From: Patescibacteria group bacterium
GTDB lineage: Bacteria; Patescibacteriota; Patescibacteriia; Patescibacteriales; WJLG01
Length of the DNA stretch: 64,000 nt
Reading direction: 5' to 3'
Assembly: GCA_028707065.1 (NCBI GenBank)
Contig: JAQTUZ010000004.1
Location: 6,656-70,655, forward strand
This document shows positions 35,144 through 59,266 of the stretch, one piece after another. A program made the translations under genes and the position numbers. The notes beneath the pieces are model-generated. The model had not been told where the DNA came from and did no database searches. It saw only the letters and a program-made list of their open reading frames with translations. The first letter of the stretch is position 1. Every line of letters begins with the position of its first letter.

Positions 35144-35662
35144 ATATTGATTACTTTTTCGTTTTGTGGTAATATCGTGGGCAAAAGAGATATACTTAAT
35201 TTTTTGACTATTTTTAGCTAAATTATTAATTATATTTCGGCGCGATCTTTGACAATTTTTTTCTAACATTGCCAATAATATTGACTTAAATAATCATCCT
35301 AAAAAAGGAGAGAGAAGTATAAGCCAAGAGTAAAGTTGAAGTCAGCTTGGTGCGTTTTTTCATCCTCTTACCATTTTCGGTTAACGAGGATTTTCTGACA
35401 GACGGCTGTCAGCGCGGTTGCGTATGTTTCACCTAAATTTTTCGGAGGAATGAAAAAGAGATAAACAGATGATTTGCCGCTTTCAATGGTTGAGTCTTGG
35501 TCGCCGGTCGGCATCAGGACAAGGGAGGCGGCCCTCACCTTAAACCCGGGACTTTTCCCAATTCGGGACGGTTCTTCGAACCGTTGTTTTCCGGCAGATA
35601 TTTTCGGACGGTTGTTATTTGAATTGTTTTTTACCTTAACTGAAATTTCCTTGGAGGCAATT

Positions 35663-38930: not shown

Positions 38931-39054
38931 GCAAGCGCTCAGTTTTTTTGTGGTACAAGGTAATAGATGTTATAATATTAGTACATTTTTCAGTTAAGCG
39001 CATAATGCGCGCCAGATGGGCAAATTAATTACGTAATGTTTGACATTCTTCAGG

Positions 39055-42000
39055 ATGTTAAAAAATAAAATACGCCACAATTTTTTATTTAAAAGTTTAG
39101 CGCTGAAATTATTTTTTTTGGCAGCCGTTTTTTTATTGCTGGTATCGAATGCTCAAGCAGATGATCCGCCAACCGAAATCTACCAAGTTTATGCGACGCC
39201 GGCATCCGCTACATCCGCTCTAATTACTTGGAACCTTCAGAACGATAACACAGGTGTCGATCACTATGAAATTAGCCGGGGATTGTGCGGTAATGACAGC
39301 TTGACTTTACTTGAAACCGTAGGGAGTACCACGACCTCTTATGTTGATTCGGATAGAGCTAATACCGTTTGTTACATTTATGGCGTCGTTGTTGTTGATG
39401 AGCTGGCGCATTCTGGTTCTATTTGGCACCGAGCCAGCCTGACTATGCCAGCCGGACCAAGTTTAAAGAAACCGATTTACGTTGATCAGACGTGGGGCGG
39501 AACCGATGGCCAGCCGTATACCGGCACTCCCGGAGTGGGCGTGGGTTATCACACGCTACAAGCCGCGGTTGATAACATAATCCCCGGCGATACGATTTAT
39601 TTGCGCGGCGGAGTGCATCAGGAATTAACAAACCTTCCTAGTAATCGGAACGGGTCATCTTGGAATGACGGCGAATTTAATACCATCACCTCCTATCCCG
39701 GGGAGTGGGCGATATTAGACGGCGGGAATAATGTTAACGCCAACTATAAATATGTTATTGGAGTTAATTTTGGCACCGGTTATCTGGCCTATTGGAAAAT
39801 TGAGCGGCTGGAAGTTCGTAATGGCTCAACTGCCGACGGCACCGGCGCGCACGGTCTTTCTTTAACTGGAATATTCAGCGTTCGTTATTGCTACATTCAT
39901 GACAATGTGGCGACTTCATACGATAATTACGCCGGGCTTTATGGAGCTCATTGGACTGACGCTATTGTTGAATATAATGTTTTTAAGAATAATGGCTGCC
40001 CTACTCAGGGGAATAGTACCCATATGGGGCAATATACCGATTATAACGCTACCAATATTTCCAATAATGGTTTTGTCGACCTGGGAATAGCAAGGCACGA
40101 TACGCGGAACGAAATTCGCTACAATCTATTTTTAGGAGGCAGTAATCATGGCTATAAGGAAAAAATGGATCAATATTTTTCATCGCGCTCTGTTTGGCAG
40201 GATGCCGATTTCAAGACCTATGGTAATAATATCCATCACAATGTTTTTCTGAATTTGGACGGTAGTGCTATTGTGGCGGATCAGGATTACACCCAAATAC
40301 ATAACAATATTATTGCCAATAGCGGCGGCGGCATCGTTCTCGGTGATGATCCGTTGCGCAAGCCCGTGGTATACAATAATACCATTGTAAATACTGCGGG
40401 TGATGCGATGACCTTCCTCAACAGCCCGGGAAGTTCCCATCTGCCTCTCCTAAATCCTTATTATGGCTATGCCTTCAATAATATTGCGGACGGTGATGAA
40501 GTTTCTGGGGCGAATTGGACTTCGGAAGAGTATACGGTCTGGGCCACCACAACAAACCCAAGCAAAATGTATTTTAAAAATAATTATTCCTACCGGCCAG
40601 TTTCCAACGGTAATGATCCGGCAGGTACCTATATGTTTTGGGCGGGTCCCTATAATGTTTGTCCCGGAGTCGCTTGTCGCTATACCATTGCTCGCTATAA
40701 ATCCGAGATCGATCCTTCTGCTACCAATTGGATGAACGCTTACGATGCCGGCAATCTTCTCTATCGGGGTGTGGCTGGCACGGACTTGTATCGGACAGTG
40801 GGAACACATAGTTTGGGTGATGGTTTAACTATTGCTAATGGCGGAATCGGCGGTACGCACCCATATCTGGACGGCGTTGGCGTAGACGGCCGCGGAGTGG
40901 CCGTACCGTTGGTTACTATTCCGTCATACGTTGGCGCCACCAATCCCAACGATGACGCTTGGGTCGCGGGAGTCCTTGGTCTGGAAGCAACCTCCACTTT
41001 AATGGCCGCTTCTTCCAACGATCCGGGTTGGATTGAAGGTGCTGGGCCTGATATCACCGCTCCGTCCATTCCAACCGGTTTAACCGCGACCGCGATTTCT
41101 TCTTCGCGAATCAATTTATTTTGGACTGCATCCGCTGACGCTGTCGGCGTTTCCGGCTACCGCGTCTATCGCAATAGCATCCAGATCGCCACTTCCACCG
41201 GTACCAGTTATTCCAGCACCGGACTCTCCGCCTCCACTCAATATTCCTATACCGTTTCCGCCTTTGACGCGGCGCGCAATTTCAGCGCGCAAAGTTCCGC
41301 GGTTTCCGCCACCACCCAAGCCGCTCCCGTAGTCGCGCCGCCGTCAGGCGGGGGCTCTTCCGGCGGAGGAAGTTCCGGCGGCAGCGTTACTCCGGTCGTT
41401 CCGCCTGTCGTTTCTCCGGTAGCCACTTCCACCGGCCAAACCCCGGAGCCGGAAACCACTCCGCCCGCGGCCGCCAATCAAGAAAATCAAACCTCTGTTT
41501 CCGCTCCGGCCACATTGTCCGGCGCCTCCTCGGCCACGGTCAATCAAGTCACGGCCGCCGAAGCCGCGATTATCAGTTCCCGAACCACCTATGTTAATTT
41601 TTCCACCGGTTCCAAAATCTCCTACGACAAACTGATGGCGCAAATATCCGTCCCGGTAACTAACGAACAAAAAGCAATTGTCGCTAATTTCATCCAATCC
41701 GGCACTCCGACCACGCTAGTCTTGGGGGCGGGCGAGCGGGCCGGTTCGATCAATTCCTTCCGCTCCGCCTTTACCCGTTTGCCGGCTTCAACTCTGGACT
41801 GGCAGGACGTGATCAAGATCGGCAACGGCCGCTGGACAACGCAAAGAAGCGCCACGGCCGAAGCCAAAGCGAAAATCAGTTTCAAAAAAATCTATCTCCG
41901 CGAGCCGAATATGGCCAATGCCAAAGACAATGCCGCCGTTACGGTCATGGCCTACGGCCTGCGGCCGGCGCAAAGAAATATGAATAGCGAAAAAGCCGCG

Positions 42001-42096
42001 ATCAATTCCTTCAAATATATTTTCCACAAAATTCCGGTGTCGGCGGCGGACTGGGATATAGTCCGAGCAATTGCATATAGCGGCGCCAAAAGATAA
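39055..42096 (+). CDS. secreted right-handed beta-helix protein with Fn3 domains and a Gly/Ser/Pro linker
   Basis: Signal peptide. Fn3-like segments: ATSALITWNLQ…YEISRG and LTATAISSSRINLFWTASADAVGVSGYRVYRN…YSYTVSAFD. Parallel beta-helix-like repeats: NN(I/V)…N… (HHNVFLN, IHNNIIANSGGGIVLG, YNNTIVN). Confidence 0.7.
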   Translation: MLKNKIRHNFLFKSLALKLFFLAAVFLLLVSNAQADDPPTEIYQVYATPASATSALITWNLQNDNTGVDHYEISRGLCGNDSLTLLETVGSTTTSYVDSDRANTVCYIYGVVVVDELAHSGSIWHRASLTMPAGPSLKKPIYVDQTWGGTDGQPYTGTPGVGVGYHTLQAAVDNIIPGDTIYLRGGVHQELTNLPSNRNGSSWNDGEFNTITSYPGEWAILDGGNNVNANYKYVIGVNFGTGYLAYWKIERLEVRNGSTADGTGAHGLSLTGIFSVRYCYIHDNVATSYDNYAGLYGAHWTDAIVEYNVFKNNGCPTQGNSTHMGQYTDYNATNISNNGFVDLGIARHDTRNEIRYNLFLGGSNHGYKEKMDQYFSSRSVWQDADFKTYGNNIHHNVFLNLDGSAIVADQDYTQIHNNIIANSGGGIVLGDDPLRKPVVYNNTIVNTAGDAMTFLNSPGSSHLPLLNPYYGYAFNNIADGDEVSGANWTSEEYTVWATTTNPSKMYFKNNYSYRPVSNGNDPAGTYMFWAGPYNVCPGVACRYTIARYKSEIDPSATNWMNAYDAGNLLYRGVAGTDLYRTVGTHSLGDGLTIANGGIGGTHPYLDGVGVDGRGVAVPLVTIPSYVGATNPNDDAWVAGVLGLEATSTLMAASSNDPGWIEGAGPDITAPSIPTGLTATAISSSRINLFWTASADAVGVSGYRVYRNSIQIATSTGTSYSSTGLSASTQYSYTVSAFDAARNFSAQSSAVSATTQAAPVVAPPSGGGSSGGGSSGGSVTPVVPPVVSPVATSTGQTPEPETTPPAAANQENQTSVSAPATLSGASSATVNQVTAAEAAIISSRTTYVNFSTGSKISYDKLMAQISVPVTNEQKAIVANFIQSGTPTTLVLGAGERAGSINSFRSAFTRLPASTLDWQDVIKIGNGRWTTQRSATAEAKAKISFKKIYLREPNMANAKDNAAVTVMAYGLRPAQRNMNSEKAAINSFKYIFHKIPVSAADWDIVRAIAYSGAKR

Positions 42097-44496: not shown

Positions 44497-47400
44497 ATGA
44501 TTTTTATGGCTACTTCTAAATCAATCGAAGAATTGATCAAGTCTTCCCGGGGTGAACCAATGGCTGATGAGTCAGCCGAAGCTAAATTCGCCAAAAAAGA
44601 AGAGGAGATAAAGATCAAGGAAATGGAACGCCAGACCGGCGAGCGGGCCGCCGCCGCGGGGTTGCCTTACATTGATCTTTTCGGTTTTCCCATCAGTCCG
44701 GAGGCGATCGCGCTGATTCCCGAGGCTGACGCGGCCAGATTGAAAATCGTTTGTTTTTTTTATGACGGCAATAACGCCCGGATCGCGGTGATGGATCCGT
44801 CCTTGCCGGAAATCGGACCGATCGCCGAAGCGATCGCCCATGATTACCACGTCAAAGTGGCGTTTTATATGATCTCCTCGCACAGTTTTGACTATGCCTT
44901 GAAAATATACCAGACACTCCCCAAGATCATCCGCCAGACCAGAGGAGTTGATATTACCGAAGAAGAATTGGAAAAATTCAAAACTTATATCGAAGACTAT
45001 CGGAGCTTGGCGCAAAAGATCAACGAGGTCAACACCACCGATGTCATCACCCTGATTTTGGCTACCGCTTTAAAGATGGATTCAAGCGATCTGCACATCG
45101 AGGCGGAAGAAAAAGGCATCGCCGTCCGAGTCCGCGTCGACGGCGTTTTGTACGAGGCGGCAATGATCGAAAAAGAAAAATGGAAGCAGATCATTTCCCG
45201 CTTGAAACTTTTAGCCAAGGTCAAGATCAACATCACCGATAAGCCGCAGGACGGGCGCTTCACTATTTTTTTAACCAAGGAAAAAATCGAAGTCAGGGTT
45301 TCCTTTCTGCCCACCAATTACGGCGAGAGTGTGGTCGTTCGCTTATTGCGGCCGGGTTCGATAAGTTTGGGTTTTGAAAAATTGGGTTTGCGCCCCAAGG
45401 CCTGGGAAATTTTGGAACGGGAGATCAATAAGCCGAACGGCTTGGTCCTTGCCACCGGTCCGACCGGTTCGGGAAAAACCACCACGCTGTACGCGATTTT
45501 GCGGAAGATCAACAAGCCGGGAATGAAAATAATCACCTTGGAAGACCCGATCGAATATCAGCTGGAAGGGATCAACCAAAGCCAGATTGATCCTTCCAAA
45601 GGTTATACTTTCGCGAGCGGCCTAAGGTCGATCTTGCGCCAGGACCCGGACGTGATCATGGTCGGCGAGATCCGCGATCTGGAAACGGGGGAAACGGCGA
45701 TCCAGGCCGCGCTGACCGGCCATCTGGTTTTAAGCACTTTGCATACCAACGACGCCGCCGGCGTACTGCCCCGTTTGATCGATCTGGGCGTCAAGCCGTA
45801 TTTTATGACGCCGTCGATCAACTGCATTGTCGGCCAGCGTTTGGTCAGGCACCTTTGCCCCCAATGCCGGGTTGAGCATATTCTTAATGAAGAAGAAAAA
45901 CAAAAACTGGAAAAAATACTCGCGGTGGTTTCGCCTAAATCCGGAGAAGACGTGCCCACGGTCTTGCCGAAAATTTATCAGGCCGGCGCCGGCTGCAAAG
46001 CTTGCAATGGCATCGGCTATAAAGGCCGTCTCGGCATTTACGAACTTTTTACCATGACCGAGAGCATCAAAGAATTGGCGACGCAAAACGCTCCGGCGTT
46101 CAAATTGCTGGAGCAGGCGATCGAGGATGGCATGCTGACCATGCTGCAGGATGGCGTGTTTAAAGTTATGGACGGACTGACTTCCTTGGATGAAGTTTAT
46201 CGCGTCATCGGCAAAACCGATTATGTCGACGCCTTGTATGATATCGTCATCTCCAAAACTTTCGGCCATGGCATCAAAGTCACCGAAGCGGATATTGCCC
46301 GCAGCGAAGAGATCGCGGCCGACCCGGCCACGATGAATGCCAAAGCCGGCCGCATTCCTTCCAGTGAACTTCTTAATCTGGTTATGGCTTTGGCTCTCAA
46401 AGATGATGCCGGTGATGTCCATATTGAACCGACCGAAGGCGACGTCAAGATCAGATTCAGGATTGACGGCATTTTGCATGATATCTTGACTTTGTCCAAA
46501 GAGCATTATTTGCCGCTTTTGTCGCAAGTGAAAATTTCCGCCGGCTTTCCGACCAATGTCAAAAAGGCTACCTGGGACGGGCGCTTCGGCATATTCTTGA
46601 AAGACAAGAAGATCGATTGCCGCATTTCCATCATTTCCGGCGGCTATGGCGAAACGGTCGTGGTCCGCGTTTTGTCTTCCCAGGCGGAAAGCTTGGATCT
46701 GGAAAAATTAGGCATGCGGCCTTACGCTTTGGATCCGGTCAAGCGCTCGATGTCCAAAACCAAGGGTGTGATCATCAATACCGGTCCGACCGGTTCGGGA
46801 AAAACTACCACGCTTTACGCTATTTTAAACGCCTTGAATAAATCAGACGTGAAAATTATTACTGTCGAAGATCCGATCGAGTATCATCTTCCCGGCGTGA
46901 TGCAGACCCAGATCGACCCGGAACAAGGCTATACTTTCGCCGCGGCCATGCGTTCGCTCTTGCGCCAGAATCCCAACATTATGATGATCGGCGAAATCCG
47001 CGACGAGGAAACGGCCAAGATCGCGATTGAAGCATCGCTCACCGGCCACTTGGTCTTATCAACCATCCACGCCAACACGGCCGCCACCGCCATTTCCCGT
47101 TTTGCCGGCTTGGGCGTGGGCGCGCAAATGCTGGCTTCGGCGGTCGAATGCACGATCGGCCAGCGCCTGGTCCGTAAAAATTGCCAATTCTGCAAAGCGG
47201 AAGTGAAATTATCCGACGAGCAAATGAAAGAAGTAAAAACGATCCTTGATTCCATCAGTCCGCTGGCAAAAATAAAAATCCCCAAAATTTTGAAGTTTTA
47301 TCAAGGGAAGGGCTGCGCCAAATGCAATAACTTGGGCTACAAAGGGCGCTTGGGTATTTATGAAACGATTGAGATGATCCCGGAAATGCAGCGCAAGATC

Positions 47401-47538
47401 CAGGAAACCAACGTGACCGCTTTTGATATCGAGCAAGAGGCGATCAAATACGGCACGGTGACGATGATGCAAGACGGCATTTTGAAAGCTTTGGACGGGG
47501 AGACGAGCGTGGAGGAAGTGTTCCGGGTGGTAAAATAA
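44497..47538 (+). CDS. tandem-duplicated GspE/PilB-family secretion ATPase (two complete ATPase modules in one polypeptide)
   Basis: MshEN-like N-domain, then module 1 (Walker A GPTGSGKTTT at nt 45457, VIMVGEIRD, GHLVLSTLHTNDA, CPQC…CKAC). A ~45-aa linker leads to module 2 (Walker A at nt 46783, IMMIGEIRD, GHLVLSTIHANTA, CQFC…CAKC). Confidence 0.85.
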   Translation: MIFMATSKSIEELIKSSRGEPMADESAEAKFAKKEEEIKIKEMERQTGERAAAAGLPYIDLFGFPISPEAIALIPEADAARLKIVCFFYDGNNARIAVMDPSLPEIGPIAEAIAHDYHVKVAFYMISSHSFDYALKIYQTLPKIIRQTRGVDITEEELEKFKTYIEDYRSLAQKINEVNTTDVITLILATALKMDSSDLHIEAEEKGIAVRVRVDGVLYEAAMIEKEKWKQIISRLKLLAKVKINITDKPQDGRFTIFLTKEKIEVRVSFLPTNYGESVVVRLLRPGSISLGFEKLGLRPKAWEILEREINKPNGLVLATGPTGSGKTTTLYAILRKINKPGMKIITLEDPIEYQLEGINQSQIDPSKGYTFASGLRSILRQDPDVIMVGEIRDLETGETAIQAALTGHLVLSTLHTNDAAGVLPRLIDLGVKPYFMTPSINCIVGQRLVRHLCPQCRVEHILNEEEKQKLEKILAVVSPKSGEDVPTVLPKIYQAGAGCKACNGIGYKGRLGIYELFTMTESIKELATQNAPAFKLLEQAIEDGMLTMLQDGVFKVMDGLTSLDEVYRVIGKTDYVDALYDIVISKTFGHGIKVTEADIARSEEIAADPATMNAKAGRIPSSELLNLVMALALKDDAGDVHIEPTEGDVKIRFRIDGILHDILTLSKEHYLPLLSQVKISAGFPTNVKKATWDGRFGIFLKDKKIDCRISIISGGYGETVVVRVLSSQAESLDLEKLGMRPYALDPVKRSMSKTKGVIINTGPTGSGKTTTLYAILNALNKSDVKIITVEDPIEYHLPGVMQTQIDPEQGYTFAAAMRSLLRQNPNIMMIGEIRDEETAKIAIEASLTGHLVLSTIHANTAATAISRFAGLGVGAQMLASAVECTIGQRLVRKNCQFCKAEVKLSDEQMKEVKTILDSISPLAKIKIPKILKFYQGKGCAKCNNLGYKGRLGIYETIEMIPEMQRKIQETNVTAFDIEQEAIKYGTVTMMQDGILKALDGETSVEEVFRVVK

Positions 47539-48367: not shown

Positions 48368-49573
48368 ATGAAAAAGGAAACGTCAGTCAATCTATACCAG
48401 GAATTGGGAGTTGATTCGGGAAAAAGAATCGTGCGTAAAGTCTTCAAGAGGCTCGTCCGGAATGAATTTCCCGGCGCGTTCTGCAATATCGTGGCTGATC
48501 CGATGGTGCCGGGCTGGGTGATGACCCAACATGGCGATGGCGATGGCAGCAAGATCGTGCCCCGGATAATCCATTATTTGGAAACCGGCAAGCCCGAAAT
48601 CATCAAGGGCTCGGTCGATGACGGGATGACGATGAATTACGCGGATGTGGCCGCGGCTGGTTTCGTCTATGGCTATTCGGTGATTACGGACACGATAAAT
48701 TTCGGTCTTCCGAAAAAACTGAAAGAAATCGTGATGACCCAGATGGCGGCGCGAATCGCCGAATTGATCGATTTCTACGCCAAGCATGGTATCAACTTGA
48801 TTTATTTTTTGGGCGGCGAAACGGCCGATCTGCCCAATCAGGTCTGTTCCGCCGTGTTTGATGTCACGGTCAATGCGCACATGCCCAGAGAAAAAGTCAT
48901 TGCCGGAAACGTCAAACCGGGTGATGTTATTTACGGTTTGGCCAGCGGCGGCAAAGCGCGGGGGGAAAAGGTGGAAAGTTCCTGGTTGATGTCGAACGGT
49001 TTGACCCTGGCATCTTCCTGCCTGCTGCACCGATCATATAACAAAAAACACCGCGATATCTTGCGCAATCCTTTTTGGTTCAAGGGTCGCTATCGGATCG
49101 GCGACGTTCCGGCTGGGCTGGGTTGCGAAGTGAACGAGGCGCTGCTGGCGCCAACCAGACAATGGGTGATCTTCATCCGTAAATTTCTGGATTATCTGGA
49201 TCATGAGGGCATTGGAAAAATGCTTCATGGTATCAGCGTTAACACCGGCGGCGGAGCCACGAAAATTCTTCATGTGGGCGAAGGCGGTATCCGCTACGTT
49301 AAAGAAATGCCGACCCCGGGGCCGATCTTCCAACTCATTCATGAGGAATCCGGCCAGAACTGGCGCAATATGTTCGAGACTTTCAATTGCGGAGTCGGGC
49401 TTGACGTTGTCGGCAAAGATGATCCGCGATTTCAACGGGCCATCAGCCAAGTAGCCGCGAACTGCGAAATCGAGCTTTATCGGCTCGGCCAATGCGAAGC
49501 CAAGGAAGGGGAGAATGACGTCATCTTGAAAACTCCTTATGGGACGTTCGACGACTATACGAAGAAGAAGTAA
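48368..49573 (+). CDS. purM: PurM-like (AIR synthase family) protein, divergent
   Basis: Matches to E. coli PurM blocks recalled from memory: GGETADLP (GGETAEMP), LLAPTRQWV (LLAPTRIYV), NTGGG (LTGGG), MFETFNCGVGL (MYRTFNCGVGM). The GTDGVGTK block is altered to HGDGDGSK. Confidence 0.65.
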   Translation: MKKETSVNLYQELGVDSGKRIVRKVFKRLVRNEFPGAFCNIVADPMVPGWVMTQHGDGDGSKIVPRIIHYLETGKPEIIKGSVDDGMTMNYADVAAAGFVYGYSVITDTINFGLPKKLKEIVMTQMAARIAELIDFYAKHGINLIYFLGGETADLPNQVCSAVFDVTVNAHMPREKVIAGNVKPGDVIYGLASGGKARGEKVESSWLMSNGLTLASSCLLHRSYNKKHRDILRNPFWFKGRYRIGDVPAGLGCEVNEALLAPTRQWVIFIRKFLDYLDHEGIGKMLHGISVNTGGGATKILHVGEGGIRYVKEMPTPGPIFQLIHEESGQNWRNMFETFNCGVGLDVVGKDDPRFQRAISQVAANCEIELYRLGQCEAKEGENDVILKTPYGTFDDYTKKK

Positions 49574-51002: not shown

Positions 51003-51074
51003 TTAGCGTCGCAGTCCGCGGCGGCTTGTCCCGAGTTTGCCGAGGGAAGACTGCGACGAGGCTAATATTTTTTT
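51003..51074 (+). promoter_or_regulatory. long terminator-like hairpin with T-run in the leader of the sigma-factor operon
   Basis: TTAGC-GTCGCAGTC…(32-nt loop)…GACTGCGAC-GA-GGCTAA followed by TATTTTTTT, ~60 nt before the preferred sigma-factor ATG. No upstream plus-strand gene is present for it to terminate. Confidence 0.45.
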
Positions 51075-51135
51075 AAAAAGAACAATCTCTGATATAATGA
51101 AGGTAATAAGTTACTCTCAGTTGCGTTATAACTTT

Positions 51136-51720
51136 ATGGCATCAACCGAAGCGTTTTTAGAAAATGAAGCCGAGCTCGTGGAAAAAGCCAAGGTCGATGA
51201 CCAGGCTTTTAGTATTCTTTACCAGCATTATTTTCCCAAGATTTACGGCTACGTGCAGAAGCGCGTCTCGGGCCGGGAAACGGCGGAAGATATTGTCTCG
51301 CAAGTTTTTTTAAAGGCTTTCGGCCATCGGCAAAAATATCAGAGCCGCGGTTTTAGTTTTGGCGCCTGGCTTTACCGCATCGCCACCAACGCCTTGACTG
51401 ATCATTATCGCCGCCAAGGCTCTCATCTCGAAGAAGCGATCACTGACGATTCGGCGCGCGAGCCGGCGGGCGAAAATTTAACCGAAGAATTGATCCAAAA
51501 AAGCGATCGGCAAGCGATCGAAAAAGTGCTTAACAAGATGCCCGAACGCTACCGGCAAGCCGTCTATCTGCGCTATTTCGCGGAAATGGAAATTTTCGAG
51601 ATCGCTGAAACTCTGCAGCTTCCCAAAACGCATGTTTCGGTGATCTTGCATCGCGCCCTGGATTGCTTCCGCCAAAAGGCGGACAAAGCCGGAATAAAAT
51701 TTTATCTGATAATTTTTTAA
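51136..51720 (+). CDS. sigma-70 family (ECF-type) RNA polymerase sigma factor
   Basis: Region 2 (FSILYQHYFPKIYGYVQKRV…AEDIVSQVFLKAF…WLYRIATNALTDHYRR) and region 4 (RYRQAVYLRYFAEMEIFEIAETLQLPKTHVSVILHRAL). The start could instead be 51097. Confidence 0.85.
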   Translation: MASTEAFLENEAELVEKAKVDDQAFSILYQHYFPKIYGYVQKRVSGRETAEDIVSQVFLKAFGHRQKYQSRGFSFGAWLYRIATNALTDHYRRQGSHLEEAITDDSAREPAGENLTEELIQKSDRQAIEKVLNKMPERYRQAVYLRYFAEMEIFEIAETLQLPKTHVSVILHRALDCFRQKADKAGIKFYLIIF

Positions 51721-51723
51721 TAT

Positions 51724-54700
51724 ATGGAACAAGAATTAAATCCAAACCAAGGCCAAGACCTGGCTGGGCGTAATAAAGAGGATGAGGCAGCGTTATTAAA
51801 GGCAGAGGAAAAAATTAAAAACCTCGCTTTTAAAGACGAACCCGCTACGCCGGATTTCCAGGAAAATTTGCAAAATCGGATTTTGGCGGCGCGCCATCGT
51901 CATTTTTCTATGTCCGAATTTTTAAACAAGCTCGCCAAAGGATTGATTTTTATGTTTGACACCAAGGCTTTTGTCCCGGCCGTGGCCGTTTTTTTGATCA
52001 TTGCCGTCGGCTTGAGCCTGACCATGCCCTGGCTGCCGCGGCAAGCGGGCGTTAATAATCCCTGGGGGAAGATCTCCCAATTGGTTATCAACCCGGCCTA
52101 CGCGCAGGATAATTTTTCCGCCGAGGCGACCATTTCCGACAGCTTGGGCGTTGGCGCCGATACGGCTTTTATCATTAAAAGCAAAGAGGCGATTGACGAG
52201 CAAACTCTGCGGGCGAACATAACTTTACAACCGACGACCGAATTTTCCTTAACCAAGATCGATGATCATACTTATCAAGTAATTCCGGCGCAAGCTTTGG
52301 CGGCCAAGAAAGTTTATAGCTTGAAGATCGCCAGCGCTTATGTCGATCAAAGCGGCGCCACCGTCGAGCGCGATTATTCCTGGGCCTTCCAGGTCAAAGA
52401 TATTTTTAAGGTTTTGAATTCGATCCCGGGCAATCAGGCCAATGGCGTGCCGTTGGATGCCGGAATTGAAGTGACTTTTTCCAACGAAAACTTCAGCAAT
52501 TACGAACAAGCGTTCAAGATCGAGCCGGCCATTGCCGGGCGTTTTGAGATTCACAAGCGCACTTTGGTTTTTGTGCCCAAAGCTTTGGAGGCGGGGATGA
52601 TCTATACCGTGACCATCAATAAAGATTTGCTGAAAGTTACGGGGAGCGAAGCCAAGCTCGCGGAAAATTATGTCATTCAATTTGAAACCGATCCGGCCGG
52701 AAAAAAACGCGGCGAGTATTCCGAATTCAATTTCCAAAATAATTTTAACGAGATCTATACCGAACGCGCGCCGGCGCTGGCTGTCAATCTATACAACATC
52801 AAACAGGAAACTTTTGCCGTCGAAGTTTACGCATTTTCCGGCGCGGACGGATTTATTGCCGCCCTGGAAAAGTCGCAAAAAATTCCCTATTGGGCGCAGT
52901 ACAATCGCGCTGTCTACAATACCGACGTTTCCGCCTTGACTAAAGTTTCCTCGTTTTCCATTCCTTTGTCGCCTTTTGGCTACAACAAATACTTGGTGTT
53001 TCCCGACAAGATCGCCAAGGGTTTTTATGTCGTTCAGGTCAATATCAACGGCGTTTATCTTCAGACATTTATGGAGGTTTCCGATTTGACCAATTATACG
53101 ACCGTGACTGATACCAATACTTTGGTTTGGCTCAACAATATCAAAACCAAAGGACCGGCGGCCGGGGCGAAGGTAAAAATTATCGGCACGGACAAGCAGA
53201 CGGTTACCGGAAGCGACGGAACGGCCGTGATGCCGACCAGCTGGCTGTCTGCCGGCACCACCAGCGACCGCACTTACTTGCTGATCGACGCGGGAGAAAA
53301 AACGATCGTGCCGATCAATTTCAATTATCAAAACACCGCGCCAACGGGCGTCATGCCTTTGAGCGCCGCTTCTAAATTCTGGTATTATTTTTATACCGAT
53401 CGGATGACTTACCAGCCGGGCGACACGGTCAGCTATTGGGGCTTTGTCAAACCACGGGAAGGAGTGAAAAGCTCTTCGACGGTCACGATCAAATTATTCG
53501 GCTGGCAAAGTTATTACGATTATTACAATGACCCGGTGCCGCTCTTGCAAACCGCGGCGCAGCTTGATCCTAACTTTACTTTTACCGGCAAGATCGATCT
53601 GGGGCGTTTATCCGCCGGGTATTATTATTTGGAATATTTTATCGGCGACCAGATGATCGGCAGCCGCGGTTTGAACATCGAGAACTATGTCAAACCGGCT
53701 TATAAAGTGGAGGCGAACGCCGACCAGCACGCGGTTTTTGCGGGGCAGACCCAGTCGATCGCGGTCAAGGCCAGCTTTTTCGAAGGCACGCCGGTTCCTA
53801 ATCTGGCTTTAACTGACCCGAACGATAACGGGCAATTAAAAACCAACGCTTTGGGCGAAGCGATCAAAACTTTTAAGGTCGATCCGGTTTCCGGCGACTA
53901 CGGCAGCAACTGCAATTATTTTTATCCGGTCGCGTCCGAGGAAGCCGATATTTCCGCCAGCGCTTGCTACACTGTTTTCAATTATAGCGTCGTCCCCAAG
54001 GGGGAACTGGTGAAAACGGACGGAGCCGATCAGGCGAAATTGCAATTAAACGTGAAAAAGGTGGATATCGCCAAAGCCAACGTGGTCGGGGCGACCGAAG
54101 ATCAATTCTTGCACGAAGCCGCTCCGGGCATGCCCGTAACCGTTTCGGTCACGGAAATTTCTTATCAGGCCGTTTCCACCGGACAGTATTATGATTTCTT
54201 CAATAAGATCGTGCGTAATACCTATCGCTACAATGAGATCAGAAATAATATCGCCTCGGCCAAGGGCAAAACCGATTCGGCCGGCCAATACCAGTATTCA
54301 TTTCCGATCAAGCCGAAAAACAGTTATGAAGTCAATGTCACGATCAAGGATGTTAACGGCCAGGATATCAATGAGCGATATTATATCTATTACAGCCAGT
54401 ATAATTTTGACGATCAAAGCGATTATTATAATTTGGGATTCAAAGATCAGAAGAAAACGGATTTTTCCTTGGGCGAACAGGTGCAGATCCAATATAAGAA
54501 TAAGGATCAGCTCTTGCCTGTTGCCCCCGGCCATTATCTTTTCTATCGCCTGTTCAAAGGATTGGTGGATTATCAGATCGGCGGCAGCGCGGAATATAAT
54601 TTCAATTTTACCGACCGCTTCTTGCCCGGCGTGTACGTGATGGGAGTTTATTTTGACGGTGAAACTTACCATCGGCCGGGAAGTTACGGTTATTGGGAGT

Positions 54701-57297
54701 CATATTCCCCCGGGCTGTATGTGCCTTTCAAGCAAACCGACCGGGAATTAAAAGTCGAGGTGACGCCGGATAAAGACAAATATCAGCCGGGAGGCGAGGT
54801 GAAGTTGGCTGTCAAAGTTACCGACAAATCCGGCAAGCCCGTGGCGGCGAGCGTCAATCTTAATCTGGTTGACGAGTCTTATTACGCGATCTATCCGGAA
54901 AACGTCGATGCCCTGGGAGGATTATACGGCAATCGGGTCGAGGACGGCGAGTTAGTGACTTATATTTCCAATCCGGCGCCGGCGCTTGGCGCCGAAGTCG
55001 CGGAAAGGGGCGGCTGTTTTCTCGCGGGCACCAAAATAACCATGGCCGACCGGTCGCTTAAAAATATCGAAGATGTTAAAATCGGCGACGAGGTGCTTAC
55101 CTTTACCAATGAAACGGCGCGGAGTTTGGTGGCGGGAAAAGTAACCAAGACCTATGTCCACGAAGTCGGCGAGTATTTGATCATTAATGATAAATTAAAA
55201 ATCACTCCGATCCACCGCGTTTTCTTGAACGGCCAATGGCGGATGATCGGCGAAGCCAAGGTCGGCGACTGGCTTTTGGACGAGCAAGGCGAAAAAGTTA
55301 AGATTGCCAAGATCGAGGACCGCCGCGGTCTGTTCAAAGTTTATAATCTGACGATCGAGCCTTATCATACTTTTTTTGCCGAAGGTTTTTATGTCCATAA
55401 TGATAAAGGCGGCGGCGTGCGTTCGCTGTTCGTGGATACGGCCGTGTTTATGAACGTCAACACCGGCGCTGATGGCGCGGCAATCGCCGCCTTCAAGCTG
55501 CCGGATAATATCACTTCCTGGCGCGTGACCGCGCAAGCTTTAAGCGGCGATCTTTACGCCGGCGACAAGGTCATCAATCTCAAATCGTCTCTGCCGGCCT
55601 TCGTCAACACCACTTTCGCCAAAGAATATTTAACGGTCGATAAGCCGATCGTAAAAGTGCGGGCTTTCGGCGACGCGCTGCGCGATAATGATCCGGTGCA
55701 ATTCAAAATGGACGCGCCGACTTTGAATTTTTCGAGCACGACCGTCGGCCAGGCCTTTGTTGCTTCCTATTTTAAGCTCCCGCCATTGGCGATCGGCGAG
55801 CACTCGATCACCACGGCGATCAAAGCCGGCGGCAACCAGGACGCGGTTTTGGAAAAAGTGAAGGTGCTCGATACTCGTTTTAAAGAAACCAAAACCCAGT
55901 TCTATGAATTATCGCCGGGCCTTAAAGCGGCCGGGGCGCCCGATGGCCAGACTAATTTGATTTTCAGCGACAAAAACCAAGGCCGATTCTACGGCCAGCT
56001 TTCCTATTGTTTCTTTTGTTCGGGCGGCGATCGGGTCGATCAAAAATTGGCCCGGGTCGTATCGGCCGATCTCTTGAAGAAATATTTCGGCGAAGAACCC
56101 TTTAACCCGGAAACTTTTAACGGGGCGATGTATCAAACCGATGACGGCGGCGTCGCTTTGCTGCCCTATGCTTCTTCGGATTTTGAATTGTCAGCCAAGG
56201 TCGCTTTTGTCGCCGGAGATTATTTCGATAAGACCCGGCTGACCAATTATTTTTACAAGATTTTGACGGCCGATGATTCGACCCGCGAACAAGTCGGGGT
56301 TTCTCTTTTCGCCTTGAGCGGTTTGGGCGAACCGATCTTGTCGCCGGCGGAAAATTTCGCCGCGCTGCCCGATCTCACCGCTAAGGAAAAATTGTATATC
56401 GGCATTGCCCTGAATCATTTGGGCGACGCGGAAACGGCGCGCGCTATCTATTCGGCGGTAATAAAAGACAAAGGAGAAAAATTAGATCCTTATCTGCGGG
56501 TCAAAGTTTCGGATTCCAACGATGAGATTTTGGCGGCGACCTCGCTGGCGGCGATCTTGGCGGGCGGGCTCTTAATTCCCGATCATGAACAATTATGGAA
56601 TTACGCGGAAAGTAATTATACCCGGAATATCTCGATTGATCTGGAAAAGCTGGCCTATGTTTCCGAAACTTTGCCCAAACTTACTCCGGGCGAAGTATCC
56701 TTTACCATCAATCTGCCCGGAAGAAAAATCGACAAAACTCTCTCGCGCGGCGAAAGTTTCCGCCTGAAAATCGAACCGGCTGATCTGGGAGTGATTTCAT
56801 TCTCCAATATCAAAGGCCAGGTCGGCTTGACCAGTTCTTACCAGGCGCGCGAAGCCAATATCGCGCCTCGTGATGATTCTTATGTTTCCTTGCGGAGAGA
56901 ATACTATGTCAACGGCGTTAAGACCAATACCTTCAAAGAAAGCGACTTGGTGGAGATCAGGATGTACCCGTCCTTCAAACCCGGCGCCTTAAATTATGGT
57001 TATCAAATTACCGATCTGCTCCCTTCCGGGTTGAGCGTGATGACCAATCTTTATTCGCGCGGCATGAATTACTCCTGCAGCAATTATTATCCTTACGAAG
57101 TTAACGGGCAGACGGTTAAGTTCTCGATCTGGAAGGACTGGAATAAAGGTTCATATTGCCATACGGATTATTTCAGTTATTTCGCCCGCGTCGTTAATCC
57201 GGGCGAATACCGGGCCGAATCGGCCGTGATCCAGTCGTTCGAGGCAAGCACCGTCAAGAATTATTCCGGCGCGAATACGGTGTTGATCGAAAAATAA
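51724..57297 (+). CDS. membrane-anchored alpha-2-macroglobulin-like protein (1857 aa) with an inserted Hint domain
   Basis: Starts 4 nt after the sigma-factor stop. N-terminal ~80 aa, then a TM helix (AFVPAVAVFLIIAVGLSLTM). MG-type domains (FYTDRMTYQPGDTVSYWGFV; VEVTPDKDKYQPGGEVKLAVKVTDKSGKPVAASVNLNLVDESYYAI). A2M block (VRSLFVDTAVFMNV…FKLPDNITSWRVTAQA). I saw no CxEQ thioester motif. Confidence 0.8.
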   Translation: MEQELNPNQGQDLAGRNKEDEAALLKAEEKIKNLAFKDEPATPDFQENLQNRILAARHRHFSMSEFLNKLAKGLIFMFDTKAFVPAVAVFLIIAVGLSLTMPWLPRQAGVNNPWGKISQLVINPAYAQDNFSAEATISDSLGVGADTAFIIKSKEAIDEQTLRANITLQPTTEFSLTKIDDHTYQVIPAQALAAKKVYSLKIASAYVDQSGATVERDYSWAFQVKDIFKVLNSIPGNQANGVPLDAGIEVTFSNENFSNYEQAFKIEPAIAGRFEIHKRTLVFVPKALEAGMIYTVTINKDLLKVTGSEAKLAENYVIQFETDPAGKKRGEYSEFNFQNNFNEIYTERAPALAVNLYNIKQETFAVEVYAFSGADGFIAALEKSQKIPYWAQYNRAVYNTDVSALTKVSSFSIPLSPFGYNKYLVFPDKIAKGFYVVQVNINGVYLQTFMEVSDLTNYTTVTDTNTLVWLNNIKTKGPAAGAKVKIIGTDKQTVTGSDGTAVMPTSWLSAGTTSDRTYLLIDAGEKTIVPINFNYQNTAPTGVMPLSAASKFWYYFYTDRMTYQPGDTVSYWGFVKPREGVKSSSTVTIKLFGWQSYYDYYNDPVPLLQTAAQLDPNFTFTGKIDLGRLSAGYYYLEYFIGDQMIGSRGLNIENYVKPAYKVEANADQHAVFAGQTQSIAVKASFFEGTPVPNLALTDPNDNGQLKTNALGEAIKTFKVDPVSGDYGSNCNYFYPVASEEADISASACYTVFNYSVVPKGELVKTDGADQAKLQLNVKKVDIAKANVVGATEDQFLHEAAPGMPVTVSVTEISYQAVSTGQYYDFFNKIVRNTYRYNEIRNNIASAKGKTDSAGQYQYSFPIKPKNSYEVNVTIKDVNGQDINERYYIYYSQYNFDDQSDYYNLGFKDQKKTDFSLGEQVQIQYKNKDQLLPVAPGHYLFYRLFKGLVDYQIGGSAEYNFNFTDRFLPGVYVMGVYFDGETYHRPGSYGYWESYSPGLYVPFKQTDRELKVEVTPDKDKYQPGGEVKLAVKVTDKSGKPVAASVNLNLVDESYYAIYPENVDALGGLYGNRVEDGELVTYISNPAPALGAEVAERGGCFLAGTKITMADRSLKNIEDVKIGDEVLTFTNETARSLVAGKVTKTYVHEVGEYLIINDKLKITPIHRVFLNGQWRMIGEAKVGDWLLDEQGEKVKIAKIEDRRGLFKVYNLTIEPYHTFFAEGFYVHNDKGGGVRSLFVDTAVFMNVNTGADGAAIAAFKLPDNITSWRVTAQALSGDLYAGDKVINLKSSLPAFVNTTFAKEYLTVDKPIVKVRAFGDALRDNDPVQFKMDAPTLNFSSTTVGQAFVASYFKLPPLAIGEHSITTAIKAGGNQDAVLEKVKVLDTRFKETKTQFYELSPGLKAAGAPDGQTNLIFSDKNQGRFYGQLSYCFFCSGGDRVDQKLARVVSADLLKKYFGEEPFNPETFNGAMYQTDDGGVALLPYASSDFELSAKVAFVAGDYFDKTRLTNYFYKILTADDSTREQVGVSLFALSGLGEPILSPAENFAALPDLTAKEKLYIGIALNHLGDAETARAIYSAVIKDKGEKLDPYLRVKVSDSNDEILAATSLAAILAGGLLIPDHEQLWNYAESNYTRNISIDLEKLAYVSETLPKLTPGEVSFTINLPGRKIDKTLSRGESFRLKIEPADLGVISFSNIKGQVGLTSSYQAREANIAPRDDSYVSLRREYYVNGVKTNTFKESDLVEIRMYPSFKPGALNYGYQITDLLPSGLSVMTNLYSRGMNYSCSNYYPYEVNGQTVKFSIWKDWNKGSYCHTDYFSYFARVVNPGEYRAESAVIQSFEASTVKNYSGANTVLIEK
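55015..55401 (+). other. Hint / bacterial-intein-like (BIL) domain, 129 aa, no endonuclease
   Basis: CFLAGTKI (block A), ITPIH (block B TxxH), VYNLTIEPYHTFFAEG (block F), FYVHN (block G). The next residue is Asp. Confidence 0.8.
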
Positions 57298-57307
57298 ATC
57301 TTATCTT

Positions 57308-59266
57308 ATGGCGGGAAGAAGGATCATCATTTTAATTTTTGTTTTAGGCGCATCGGCGGTCATCTTGGCCGCCGGTGCGTTTGTATTGGAGAAAAAGAAT
57401 TTTTCCGCGGAAAAGGCGATCAGCCCGGATCGGCCGGCTAATGAAGCGGTGAATGAATCGGCGCATATTTTTCCTTATGATCGTAATCTTTTCAATTCAG
57501 CCATCAGTAAAAATTATCTTGAGCGAATGGCGACGAGCGGGCCGGTCATTGCCGGCCTGGTGCCGCATCATGAGTTGGCCGGGGATCTGGCCGCGGAATT
57601 TTTTTCCTCGCTGGCGCAAAAACAAAAAGTTAATAATTTCATTGTCATCGGACCCTTGCACTCGGATCAAGCGGTCGGCCCCGCGGTAAGCGGGCGGTTT
57701 ATCTGGGATGCCGGGTTTGGCCAGGTGGAAAATAATTATGAAATACTGGACGATCTGGTCGCGGCTCATTTGGTGGTTTATGACGAGAATGCGGTGCGGA
57801 GCGAGCACGCTCTTTATAATATGGCGCCGTTCATCGCCCATTATTTTCCGGAGGCGAAGATCGCGCCGATCGCCTTGACTTCGCGTAATTCTCCGGAACA
57901 ATGTTTCGCTTTGGCTCAGGCTCTGCAGAAATATCTGGCCCAAGGGGATACGGTGCTGGTCGCCTCGATCGATTTTTCCCATTATCTTCCGGCTGATCAA
58001 ACTCCGGCCAAAAATTTGCGAATGATCGAGTTGATAAAAAATAAGGATTACCAGACGATTGCCGGCCTGGCCAATGATTATTTGGATTCGCCCCCTTCGC
58101 TTATCACCTTGCTTAAGGCCGCTGATCTGTCGGATGCCGGCGTTAATATTTTAGCTTCGACCAATTCCGGAGAAATTACCGGGACGCCGGTTCTTTCTTC
58201 AACCAGCTATATCAGCGCCTTTTTTGCCGTCCCCCTCCTTTCAAATGAGTCTGTCCCCGCGAAGGCGGGGAAGGGGTCTGGGCCCGTCTCGGTTTTACCT
58301 ACAGCGTCCAGTAGTCCCTTGAAGCTGCTTTTTTTCGGCGACATTATGCTTGATCGCCAGGTCGGCGAAAAGATCAAGGCTTCGGGAAGCTTGGACTGGA
58401 TCTTCAAGGGCTTGAATTCGACCGGAATTTTTCAAGGCAATGATATTGTTTCCGCCAATCTGGAAGGCGCGGCCACTGATAATGGCGCGCATTATCCGCC
58501 GGCCTTGGTTTTTGATTTTGCTTTCGCGCCCAAGCTGGTCGGAGAGCTCGCGAAATATAATTTTAATTATTTTAATCTGGCCAATAATCATTTAGCCGAT
58601 CAGGGCAAAAATGGTATAATAGAGACAGAGAAAAATCTTACTGATCTGGGTTTTGTTTTTGCCGGCTGCCAGGATCGCCAAGTCGGCGACTGCACGGCCA
58701 AAATTGTGGAGAAAAGCGGCCGCCAGATCGGGTTGATCGGCGCGAGCATGGTTTATGGCGCGCTTGATGAAAACCGCCTGATCGCCGAAGTAAAAAAGCT
58801 GGCCAGTTCCACCGATTTAGTGGCGGTGCAAATACATTGGGGAACGGAATACAAGCACGAGGCGGCGGCCAACCAAACCGTTTTGGCGCGCAAATTGATC
58901 GATGCCGGCGCTGATATCATCATCGGCCATCATCCGCATGTGGTCGGCGGGGTGGAACTATATAAAAATAAGCCGATTTTTTATTCGCTGGGGAATTTCG
59001 TTTTTGATCAGTATTTTTCTCTTGATACGCAGGAAGAGTTGGGAGTGAGGATAGCCGTAACCACCCCCAAACCCCTCCTTGGAAAGGAGGGGGGCGAGGG
59101 GAAAAATTTCCAGATCGATCTTTTGCCGATCAAATCGGAAGCCGGACGCTTGCGCCTGATGAATAACGCGGAGAAAGATAAATTTTTGACCAAGCTGGCG
59201 GGCTGGTCGATCGGCGATAAAAATTTTTTGTCGGAAGTCGGAGCGGGTAAAATAGTTATTGAATAA
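57308..59266 (+). CDS. fusion protein: Memo-like (AmmeMemoRadiSam B-type) N-domain plus CapA/PGA_cap metallophosphatase C-domain
   Basis: N-terminal TM helix. Memo-like blocks are GLVPHHELAG and ASIDFSHYLP. CapA-like blocks are LLFFGDIMLDR, ANLEGA, NLANNHLADQG, GHHPHVVGG and YSLGNFVFDQ. Confidence 0.7.
   Translation: MAGRRIIILIFVLGASAVILAAGAFVLEKKNFSAEKAISPDRPANEAVNESAHIFPYDRNLFNSAISKNYLERMATSGPVIAGLVPHHELAGDLAAEFFSSLAQKQKVNNFIVIGPLHSDQAVGPAVSGRFIWDAGFGQVENNYEILDDLVAAHLVVYDENAVRSEHALYNMAPFIAHYFPEAKIAPIALTSRNSPEQCFALAQALQKYLAQGDTVLVASIDFSHYLPADQTPAKNLRMIELIKNKDYQTIAGLANDYLDSPPSLITLLKAADLSDAGVNILASTNSGEITGTPVLSSTSYISAFFAVPLLSNESVPAKAGKGSGPVSVLPTASSSPLKLLFFGDIMLDRQVGEKIKASGSLDWIFKGLNSTGIFQGNDIVSANLEGAATDNGAHYPPALVFDFAFAPKLVGELAKYNFNYFNLANNHLADQGKNGIIETEKNLTDLGFVFAGCQDRQVGDCTAKIVEKSGRQIGLIGASMVYGALDENRLIAEVKKLASSTDLVAVQIHWGTEYKHEAAANQTVLARKLIDAGADIIIGHHPHVVGGVELYKNKPIFYSLGNFVFDQYFSLDTQEELGVRIAVTTPKPLLGKEGGEGKNFQIDLLPIKSEAGRLRLMNNAEKDKFLTKLAGWSIGDKNFLSEVGAGKIVIE

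Follow-up and report, generated by a model that had tools for sequence, protein, structure and literature searches.

Members of the alpha-2-macroglobulin (A2M) and complement C3 family are defined by proteolysis of a bait loop, which springs a conformational trap. In complement C3, C4, and C5, an ANA domain is inserted in the bait-equivalent loop, and maturation yields two chains that share one macroglobulin (MG) domain. Among bacterial A2Ms, MagD of Pseudomonas aeruginosa has no CXEQ thioester motif, is membrane-associated, and traps proteases noncovalently after bait cleavage (PMC5764988). Type A bacterial intein-like (BIL) domains end in His-Asn and have no nucleophile at the residue that follows the domain (+1); an N-terminal thioester is formed, the Asn cyclizes, and the amine of the C-terminal fragment can attack the thioester (PMC4031507; PMC7765530). 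They lie in variable regions of nonconserved bacterial proteins and show autocleavage and some splicing (PMC4031507; PMC7765530). The reaction of BIL2 in the Tetrahymena thermophila BUBL protein ends in an isopeptide bond, which links the C terminus of an N-extein ending in RGG to the epsilon-amine of a Lys (PMC8616854). The present analysis concerns a BIL-type Hint domain in the bait loop of an A2M-like protein, which is encoded in a 64,000-nucleotide stretch of DNA, referred to as the window, from a Patescibacteria group bacterium (GenBank assembly GCA_028707065.1, contig JAQTUZ010000004.1, positions 6,656 to 70,655 of the forward strand). Whereas furin and the convertases process the complement proteins, in the window protein the inserted domain itself would do the processing.

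On balance, we lean toward reading the insert as a domesticated, A-type-BIL-like Hint domain that two flexible Gly-rich tethers hold at the bait loop tip of an A2M-like protein, itself membrane anchored and extracytoplasmic, and an excision mechanism is proposed for it. If true, an autocatalytic module that is fixed in this loop across deep lineages of the candidate phyla radiation would mean that the trigger of the trap can be internalized. This bears on how bait scission is coupled to conformation and on the purpose of BIL domains, a question that dates from 2003. Both components are known, BIL-type Hint domains as well as bacterial A2Ms that have or lack a thioester, and the combination of the two, the Lys next to the Hint domain, and the gene context were not found in the literature. 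The preliminary description of the window was not aware of any described example, and a literature search likewise returned nothing relevant, neither a Hint domain in an A2M bait loop nor a Hint-coupled Lys.

Hint domain and host protein

The features of the host protein and the Hint domain are as follows (positions in the window).

51724 to 57297, + strand: A2M-like open reading frame (ORF), 1857 amino acids (aa), membrane anchored, host of the Hint domain (Pfam Big_5, MG2, A2M_BRD, and A2M)
54451 to 54888, + strand: bait-region domain A2M_BRD (PF07703), residues 910 to 1055 (Pfam, E = 5e-9, above cutoff)
55015 to 55401, + strand: BIL-type Hint domain, 129 aa, residues 1098 to 1226 (Pfam, NCBIfam, and PDB profile matches; structure model)
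55015 to 55017, + strand: Cys1098, Cys1 of the Hint domain, predicted nucleophile of the N-S acyl shift onto Gly1097 (in 58 of 58 Hint-bearing proteins)
55204 to 55215, + strand: block B, T-P-I-H, with Thr1161 and His1164 (T64 and H67 of the Hint domain, 100% conserved)
55396 to 55401, + strand: block G, His1225-Asn1226 (H128 and N129, 100% conserved; intein_Cterm match), the Asn being predicted to cyclize and break the C-terminal junction
55438 to 55611, + strand: A2M domain (PF00207), residues 1239 to 1296, including LPDNITSWR (Pfam, E = 3e-5, above cutoff)

The translation of nucleotides 55015 to 55401 is CFLAGTKI...ITPIH...VYNLTIEPYHTFFAEGFYVHN, and DKGGGVRSLF comes next. Residues 1111 to 1226 match the Pfam family PT-HINT (PF07591) with an E value of 4e-15 and 56.7 bits (cutoff, 27.7), residues 1097 to 1173 match Vint above the Pfam cutoff, and residues 1205 to 1226 match intein_Cterm above the NCBIfam cutoff. 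The Hint domain has predicted local distance difference test (pLDDT) scores of approximately 85 to 97 in the AlphaFold2 (AF2) model. The block A Cys, the TxxH motif, and the terminal His-Asn, together with the PT-HINT and Vint matches and the confidently predicted fold, place the insert in the Hint superfamily. Approximately 60 full-length relatives of the window protein were collected, and a scan of one genome per species gave 80 more loci. Among the 58 nonidentical Hint-bearing members of the family, to which the conservation counts refer unless stated otherwise, Cys1, Thr64, His67, His128, and Asn129 are invariant; an apparent 98% in the Cys1 column is due to an alignment shift. The Hint domain is 129 aa long in almost all of these homologs, and none of the copies contains a homing endonuclease.

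When the Hint profile was compared with the PDB, the best match was 2LWY, a "bacterial intein-like domain" (1.2e-19), and the second was Tetrahymena BIL2 (6Y75/6TMM; 1e-18). A Hint domain within a 1368-aa protein (8W20) matched at 1e-12, and the best true intein, the RecA mini-intein, matched at 1.8e-9. With its conserved C-terminal His-Asn and no +1 nucleophile, the domain has the characters of A-type BILs, and its sequence is nearer to BILs than to inteins. It resembles the Clostridium thermocellum BIL (2LWY) in Cys1, TxxH, His-Asn, the lack of a +1 nucleophile and an endonuclease, and the location in a variable region of a nonconserved secreted or surface protein. It differs in that its host region is an A2M bait loop and in that it is vertically inherited and better conserved than its host.

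The residue at +1 is D in 27, E in 14, Q in 11, A in 5, and S in 1 of the 58 proteins. An HMMER search with the Hint profile retrieved 43,452 proteins at an E value of ≤1e-3, and approximately 33 further A2M-type representatives of 50%-identity clusters are present among the best 150 of these matches, with D in 27, E in 3, Q in 2, and T in 1 at this position. The Hint-bearing A2Ms therefore total 91 (58 family members and 33 representatives), or about 90 clusters. Since 89 of the 91 have D, E, Q, or A at +1 and Ser or Thr is found only in L023 and P0188, selection for canonical class-1 splicing is excluded. An ordinary mini-intein of class 1, spliced by way of Cys, Ser, or Thr at +1, would account for blocks A, B, and G, the intein_Cterm match, and those two sequences, but the +1 survey, the lead of about ten orders of magnitude of BIL domains over true inteins, and the site, a Gly-rich loop of a fast-evolving surface protein rather than a conserved site of an essential enzyme, occupied by an endonuclease-free insert, make this explanation barely credible.

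Three further identities were considered and rejected. PF07591 is the best-scoring Pfam model for the Hint domain, and the NCBI entry identical to the window protein, from a Patescibacteria metagenome-assembled genome, is named "polymorphic toxin-type HINT domain-containing protein." This pretoxin name is misleading, as a toxin domain and an immunity gene are absent, A2M domains follow the Hint domain, and a Memo/PGA_cap gene lies downstream. A Hedgehog-type Hog domain, in which a sterol-recognition region follows and C-terminal Asn cleavage is lacking, does not fit because the Hint domain ends in an invariant His-Asn and leads into a short Gly linker and an MG domain. An assembly or frameshift artifact is contradicted by the continuous ORF and by the recurrence of the architecture in about 90 independent clusters.

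The flanks have the architecture of the A2M/C3 superfamily, a chain of MG domains with a bait-region domain and then the A2M core. In the window protein, Big_5 matches above the Pfam cutoff, and weak matches to MG2 and bMG3, below the cutoff, lie farther upstream; the A2M_BRD stretch is modeled confidently by AF2. The Hint domain is followed by the A2M core, a thioester domain (TED)-like part, and C-terminal MG domains, so that the C-terminal 630 residues are A2M. A family profile of 59 members (A1) was searched against solved structures and matched ECAM/YfhM (5A42, 4ZIQ, and 4RTD) at about 2e-22 and Salmonella Sa-A2M at 1e-18, with weaker matches to human A2M, CD109, TEP1, and C5. A Foldseek search with the AF2 model of residues 880 to 1420 retrieved CD109, C4, A2ML1, C5, A2M, ECAM, and Sa-A2M at 1e-15 to 1e-11. 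The type I proteins ECAM/YfhM and Sa-A2M are thus the best solved relatives of the host, and they share with it a Gly/acidic bait motif and, in three Hint-bearing sibling clusters, GYPYGCxEQ. ECAM differs in being a lipoprotein with PBP1c as its partner and CLEQ at residue 1187. The type II protein MagD shares the A2M fold, the retained bait region, and the lack of CXEQ. It differs from the window protein in being a Hint-free periplasmic protein of a diderm, encoded in the six-gene magABCDEF operon, whereas the window protein has an N-terminal transmembrane (TM) anchor, an extracytoplasmic function (ECF) sigma gene upstream, and Memo/PGA_cap downstream and belongs to a family of the candidate phyla radiation (CPR), Bacillota, and Chloroflexota.

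The preliminary description had reported a 129-aa Hint domain of the BIL type, in which blocks A, B, and G are recognizable but an endonuclease is missing, an Asp at +1 with which canonical splicing was not expected, and A2M-like flanks. The Pfam and NCBIfam hidden Markov model (HMM) matches, the conservation, the homolog survey, the PDB comparison, and, for the flanks, A2M_BRD, A2M, the family profile, and Foldseek bear it out on these points.

Insertion in the bait loop

The Hint domain is connected to the host by two short tethers.

54970 to 55014, + strand: N-side tether NPAPALGAEVAERGG, residues 1083 to 1097, with a hypervariable start and a conserved end, AE-x-G-G (pLDDT < 50)
55402 to 55416, + strand: C-side tether DKGGG, in which Asp1227 is +1 and Lys1228 is +2 (pLDDT < 50)

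In the alignment with full-length YfhM, YfhM residues 852 to 922 correspond to profile positions 987 to 1056, and residues 975 to 1030 correspond to positions 1229 to 1285. The Hint domain, at profile positions of approximately 1079 to 1212, therefore falls in the unaligned YfhM stretch 923 to 974. In ECAM, elastase cleavage leaves Arg923 to Leu942 disordered, and the cleaved bait region also includes residues 956, 958, and 963 (PMC4498604). The AF2 model of residues 880 to 1420 has a mean pLDDT of 85.7, with confident beta-sandwich domains on either side of the confident Hint domain, and within the loop region very low confidence is confined to the tethers, residues 1083 to 1097 and 1227 to 1231. 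The first profile positions past the Hint domain align with human A2M residue 728, which we take to be the C-terminal end of the bait region (690 to 728, precursor numbering), and the A2M domain aligns with human A2M residues 728 to 811. On the N-terminal side, profile positions 969 to 1058 align with residues 529 to 611 of the C5 beta chain (approximately 655 residues), which puts them shortly ahead of the beta/alpha junction.

Within the bait-like loop, the Hint domain interrupts a conserved Gly-rich motif at the C-terminal end, and a hypervariable bait-like stretch, ISNPAPALGAEV in the window protein, is still present N-terminal to it. The location at the bait region that had been proposed for the domain is thus supported by the gap in the ECAM bait, whereas the idea that the domain takes the place of the bait region is not, since the loop is retained.

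Hint-less relatives read ..GGAE(K/Q/M/G)GG before the junction and (E/G)G(D/G)G(E)..R.F.DTA.F after it, and Hint-bearing relatives read ..AE.GG, the Hint domain (C..129 aa..HN), and (D/E/Q)KGG..R.F.DTA.F. Gly is at -1 in 58 of 58 Hint-bearing proteins, and Gly-Gly directly precedes Cys1 in 55. Against an HMM of 72 Hint-less relatives, the window protein scored 1676 bits after in silico deletion of the Hint domain and 1642 bits intact, with a gap-free junction, so that the test of contiguity proposed in the preliminary description is passed. As judged from these alignments, the Hint domain is a clean insertion in an A2M bait loop. The loop core, GGAE-x-GG-(E/G)G(D/G)G (window positions 54970 to 55014 and 55402 to 55425), shows conservation across Bacillota and CPR as well as similarity to YfhM residues 944 to 960 (..RFGGDGDELKRGG..; L001). 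Such conservation is unexpected for a bait region, which is usually called hypervariable.

The insert might also be an unreactive, bulky, protease-accessible decoration or binding module, with foreign proteases cutting the Gly-rich or hypervariable tethers. The disordered tethers and the persisting hypervariable N-side stretch are consistent with such a role, as is the trapping of proteases by MagD-type thioester-less A2Ms after bait cleavage (PMC5764988). However, Cys1, TxxH, His-Asn, the Gly at -1, and the Lys described below are invariant at overall identities of 30 to 75%, which is unexpected for a noncatalytic scaffold, and we consider a silent insert very improbable.

Lysine beside the Hint domain and sister Hint domains

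A Lys that was absent from the preliminary description occupies +2 in 51 and +3 in 7 of the 58 Hint-bearing proteins, and it is at +2 in all 33 A2M representatives among the best 150 of the 43,452 matches. Among 72 Hint-less relatives, a Lys within the first 6 residues past the junction occurs in only 2. The loop is equally long with and without the Hint domain, which indicates that a native (E/G)-G was remodeled to (D/E/Q)-K.

Sister Hint domains occur singly or in tandem, with 1 to 5 copies, in unrelated surface proteins, including pilin-like proteins with an N-terminal methylation motif (N_methyl) and proteins with PKD or Big_9/cadherin-like domains. Among the matches listed (P0088 to P0228), 178 of 248 such domains (72%) have Lys at +1, 24 have it at +2, and a +1 Cys, Ser, or Thr is limited to 18. 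Gly is found at -1, and 2 to 5 tandem copies are often joined by K-G alone (..HN-KG-CF..). Examples are P0091, P0096 (locus L086, 4001 to 5662), P0098, and P0100; P0088 contains 13 Hint stretches.

BIL2 of Tetrahymena BUBL (6Y75/6TMM) offers a parallel in its flanks, with an N-extein RGG before Cys1 where the window protein has ..AERGG and, past the domain, a Lys. It differs in being eukaryotic and Zn activated, with ubiquitin-like flanks and an acceptor Lys in the folded C-extein or in other proteins; the window protein has the disordered tethers of an MG domain as flanks, and its Lys is the second residue past the junction. The invariant +2 Lys also sets the window Hint domain apart from A-type BILs, for which the reviews PMC4031507 and PMC7765530 do not mention a flanking Lys. 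A Gly-Gly donor, machinery for both junctions, and a neighboring Lys make a splicing-like excision, with capture by an amine of the C-terminal fragment, the most economical reading. The invariant Lys in particular points to Lys-directed acyl transfer rather than plain cleavage, insofar as residue conservation reflects chemistry. Lys-directed acyl transfer, so far described only for Tetrahymena BUBL, may be a widespread chemistry of bacterial surface proteins, and the Hint/Lys system could become a new protein ligation tool.

The thioester site

As had been noted for the window protein, a motif scan found no C-x-E-Q, and the same holds for 62 relatives. At the aligned position, the subfamily of the window protein has GDRVDQ where thioester-bearing A2Ms have GC-x-EQ.

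56023 to 56049, + strand: degenerate thioester site GGDRVDQKL, aligned with GYPYGC-VEQT of the thioester-bearing siblings and YfhM

Three clusters, P0164 (locus L085, 5001 to 10406), P0184, and P0192, keep GYPYGCVEQ, GYPYGCVEQTMS, with the Hint domain, loop, and flanks as in the window protein, and their Hint domains nest among the A2M Hint domains. They match TED_complement and bMG10, and their resemblance to the window protein (35 to 40% identity) is limited to the central ~450 residues. A search with P0164 gave only Hint-less classical A2Ms as the next relatives. The classical-A2M-like ends of these three proteins could have arisen by recombination between A2M subfamilies.

The thioester formed by a Hint domain had been a candidate replacement for the lost CxEQ. 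This candidate is weakened, and the Hint domain is not a simple substitute for the missing thioester, because the three sibling clusters carry both. Whatever the Hint domain does, it is predicted from this distribution to act on the bait loop of thioester-bearing and thioester-less A2Ms alike. The same clusters bear on a different explanation, in which an outside amine, from a protease lysine, peptidoglycan, or a surface protein of a partner cell, takes the Gly1097 thioester, so that the N-terminal 1097 residues become covalently attached to the target on a BUBL-like platform that would be convergent with the covalent trap of A2Ms. In Tetrahymena, lysines of other proteins become conjugated to the N-extein of BIL2, the N-extein of the window protein ends in ..ERGG like a ubiquitin tail, its CxEQ is lost, and sister Hint domains are found in pilin-like and adhesin-like surface proteins. 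However, the coexistence of GYPYGCVEQ and the Hint domain in the three clusters indicates that no thioester is being replaced, and an invariant Lys in cis, two residues from the scissile bond, favors intramolecular capture. In addition, the conserved terminal Asn is not needed for a simple hand-off, and there is no known target. Transfer to an outside amine is thus regarded as improbable.

Distribution and inheritance

The host family is present in Patescibacteria, Bacillota (Clostridia and Peptococcia), and Chloroflexota (Dehalococcoidia and Limnocylindria). Within this family, the Hint domain is confined to loci labeled as CPR (Parcu-, Peregrini-, Falkow-, Peri-, Morani-, Collier-, Uhr-, Doudna-, and Saccharibacteria), with a few doubtful labels besides. 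Four loci, L009, L011, L012, and L024, are titled "uncultured Gammaproteobacteria/Pseudomonadales." In the host tree, L011 and L012 group with Collierbacteria loci, L009 lies beside L023 (Patescibacteria group), and L024 lies with Hint-bearing relatives; the automatic taxon labels of these four are probably wrong.

The mean p-distance among the 58 Hint-bearing proteins is 0.50 for the Hint domain and 0.62 for the host, and the Hint domain is therefore the better conserved of the two. Hint and host distances are correlated (Mantel r = 0.80, P = 0.001), and the GC content of the Hint domain is not anomalous. For 90 of the 91 A2M Hint domains, the nearest neighbor is another A2M Hint domain, and all 91 fall inside a bipartition of 99 tips. 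A recent mobile insertion was rejected on the basis of the normal GC content, the correlated distances, the single clade of A2M Hint domains, and the presence of only one Hint domain within the 64-kb window. We read this pattern as the likely mark of one old insertion that has been vertically inherited under purifying selection.

An old insertion need not be useful to its host. An endonuclease-free, mini-intein-like passenger could remove itself, restore the bait loop (..AERGG-DKGGG..), and add nothing to the function of the A2M. The spliced loop would resemble the Hint-less GGAEKGG-GGDG, presence within CPR is patchy, and the operon is the same in Hint-less relatives of Bacillota, Chloroflexota, and CPR. 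Splicing without a +1 nucleophile is possible for A-type BILs, and in complement C3/C4/C5 an entire domain is accommodated in this loop, in agreement with profile matches that lie toward the end of the C5 beta chain. However, a passenger would not readily account for a Hint domain that is more conserved than its host, for a flank remodeled to an invariant Lys, or for the lack of an endonuclease and of any sign of recent mobility (the Mantel correlation, normal GC content, and single clade given above). In addition, the use of this Hint clade one to five times in tandem in unrelated surface proteins is that of a deployed module and not of a parasite of conserved sites. We consider a mere passenger unlikely.

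Proposed processing of the bait loop

Under the preferred reading, that of a domesticated Hint domain that is excised from the bait loop, the order of events would be as follows; we infer every chemical step, product, and downstream effect from conservation and homology. The protein would be exported with its N terminus inside, anchored by the following helix.

51967 to 52032, + strand: single TM helix AFVPAVAVFLIIAVGLSLTMPW, residues 82 to 103 (sequence reading; a hydrophobicity scan of homologs agrees)

The Hint domain would then fold on its tethers. Cys1098, aided by Thr1161 and His1164, would turn the Gly1097-Cys1098 bond into a thioester, and Asn1226, aided by His1225, would cyclize and break the Asn1226-Asp1227 bond. 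The Hint domain would thereby be excised, and the bait loop would be processed without a foreign protease. In the favored route (a), an amine of the C-terminal fragment would attack the Gly1097 thioester and the two halves would be relinked; the candidate amines are the side chain of Lys1228, as in Tetrahymena BIL2, and the alpha-amine of Asp1227, as in A-type BILs, and capture by the latter would give a linear ..AERGGDKGGGVR. In route (b), water would attack the thioester and leave two chains held together by a shared MG domain.

Some autoprocessing is, in our judgment, quite probable. That the selected outcome is excision with relinking, through Lys1228 or the new N terminus, is a real possibility, if not yet a probable one, and an outcome that is mainly the two-chain product is possible, if rather doubtful. 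The downstream effect could be an A2M-type conformational change or signaling to the ECF sigma factor through the N-terminal tail. Candidates for the payoff are protease-independent arming or maturation, comparable to the maturation of C3 by furin, a trigger conditional on metal, redox state, or pH, and covalent attachment to a target.

Several points weigh against the preferred reading. Conservation of the catalytic residues is equally expected of a harmless passenger that removes itself. No site of the fold tolerates insertions better than the bait loop, and the position of the Hint domain may reflect tolerance rather than function. In A-type BILs, cleavage products dominate (PMC4031507), which speaks against efficient relinking. 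The Lys could have other roles, in the catalysis of Asn cyclization, as a recognition site, or as a tryptic-type cleavage site, and its position differs, being +2 in the A2Ms and +1 in the sister Hint domains. Hint-less relatives are common, and thus the A2M-like protein works without the module. In the neighbor-joining distance tree of the host, which does not distinguish losses from repeated gains, CPR clades with and without the Hint domain are intermingled, which implies losses or transfers.

A broader version of the excision reading can be formulated, in which the Hint domain, the Gly-Gly donor, and the Lys form an enzyme-free isopeptide device, equivalent to a sortase or a ubiquitin ligase and often in tandem, in many CPR surface proteins. 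In the A2Ms, it would serve as a self-arming device by which the bait loop is cut and covalently relatched, or the thioester is handed to a target, and the event would be reported to the ECF sigma factor in the tail-bearing lineages. We hold this version to be speculative and, at present, rather unlikely; if true, it would represent a new kind of self-triggered macroglobulin sensor or adhesin.

Gene context

The genes and protein segments that connect the A2M-like protein to its neighbors are as follows.

51037 to 51720, + strand: ECF-type sigma-70 gene, with its stop 3 nt before the A2M-like ORF (Pfam Sigma70_r2 and r4_2; NCBIfam sigma70-ECF, 2.6e-28)
51724 to 51969, + strand: cytoplasmic N-terminal tail, residues 1 to 82, with the motif TPDFQENLQNRILAARH, a candidate anti-sigma segment (co-occurrence of tail and sigma gene)
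57308 to 59266, + strand: membrane-anchored Memo-like and PGA_cap fusion (Pfam Memo, 5e-23; PGA_cap, 1e-57; N-terminal hydrophobic helix)

A sigma gene lies directly upstream in 18 related loci and, in addition, in L085 (the others are L003, L004, L014, L017-L020, L023-L025, L027, L030, L031, L033, L035, L036, L042, and L080). In both CPR and Bacillota, each of the 18 sigma-linked loci encodes a tail of 36 to 118 aa, and the tail is 0 to 30 aa in most sigma-less loci. The tail motif P(R)PxF+ExL+ is common to CPR and Bacillota, and no known anti-sigma domain was matched in the tail in Pfam or NCBIfam. This co-occurrence suggests that many family members may be anti-sigma factors with an A2M ectodomain. 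For CPR, Bacillota, and Chloroflexota alike, a Memo gene directly follows the A2M gene in most loci; in L085, the locus of P0164, the order is Memo/PGA_cap, ECF sigma, and A2M. A literature search found no paper on the ECF sigma/A2M/Memo gene context. The combination of an ECF sigma factor, a tailed A2M, and Memo/PGA_cap points to an undescribed envelope sensor of monoderm-type lineages (CPR, Bacillota, and Chloroflexota).

Self-cleaving anti-sigma factors of cell-surface signaling, such as Pseudomonas FoxR, undergo an N-O acyl shift. The window protein resembles FoxR as a single-pass anti-sigma-like protein, encoded beside an ECF sigma gene, with a predicted acyl-shift self-cleavage in its extracytoplasmic part. 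FoxR differs in having an unrelated fold and chemistry; for the window tail, an anti-sigma role is a prediction, and the Hint domain is also present in tail-less and sigma-less members. As the Hint domain is found both with and without the sigma/tail module, its role would be independent of that module.

Elsewhere in the window, positions 44497 to 47538 (+ strand) encode a 1013-aa T2SSE (PilB/GspE-type) ATPase with two T2SSE stretches, nearly twice the usual length, and a normal 578-aa copy is encoded at positions 9899 to 11635 (- strand). The 1013-aa protein, which gave no Hint signal, could be a tandem fusion or contain a large insertion. Two ORFs, at positions 22581 to 26669 (+ strand; 1362 aa) and 48368 to 49573 (+ strand; 401 aa), had no Pfam match at 1e-5. 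Probable surface proteins that are Hint-free and typical of CPR genomes are encoded at positions 14084 to 16867, 39040 to 42096, and 35474 to 37678 (all + strand); across these three, one has three Lamin-tail domains and PKD, one has fn3, and one has DUF6242.

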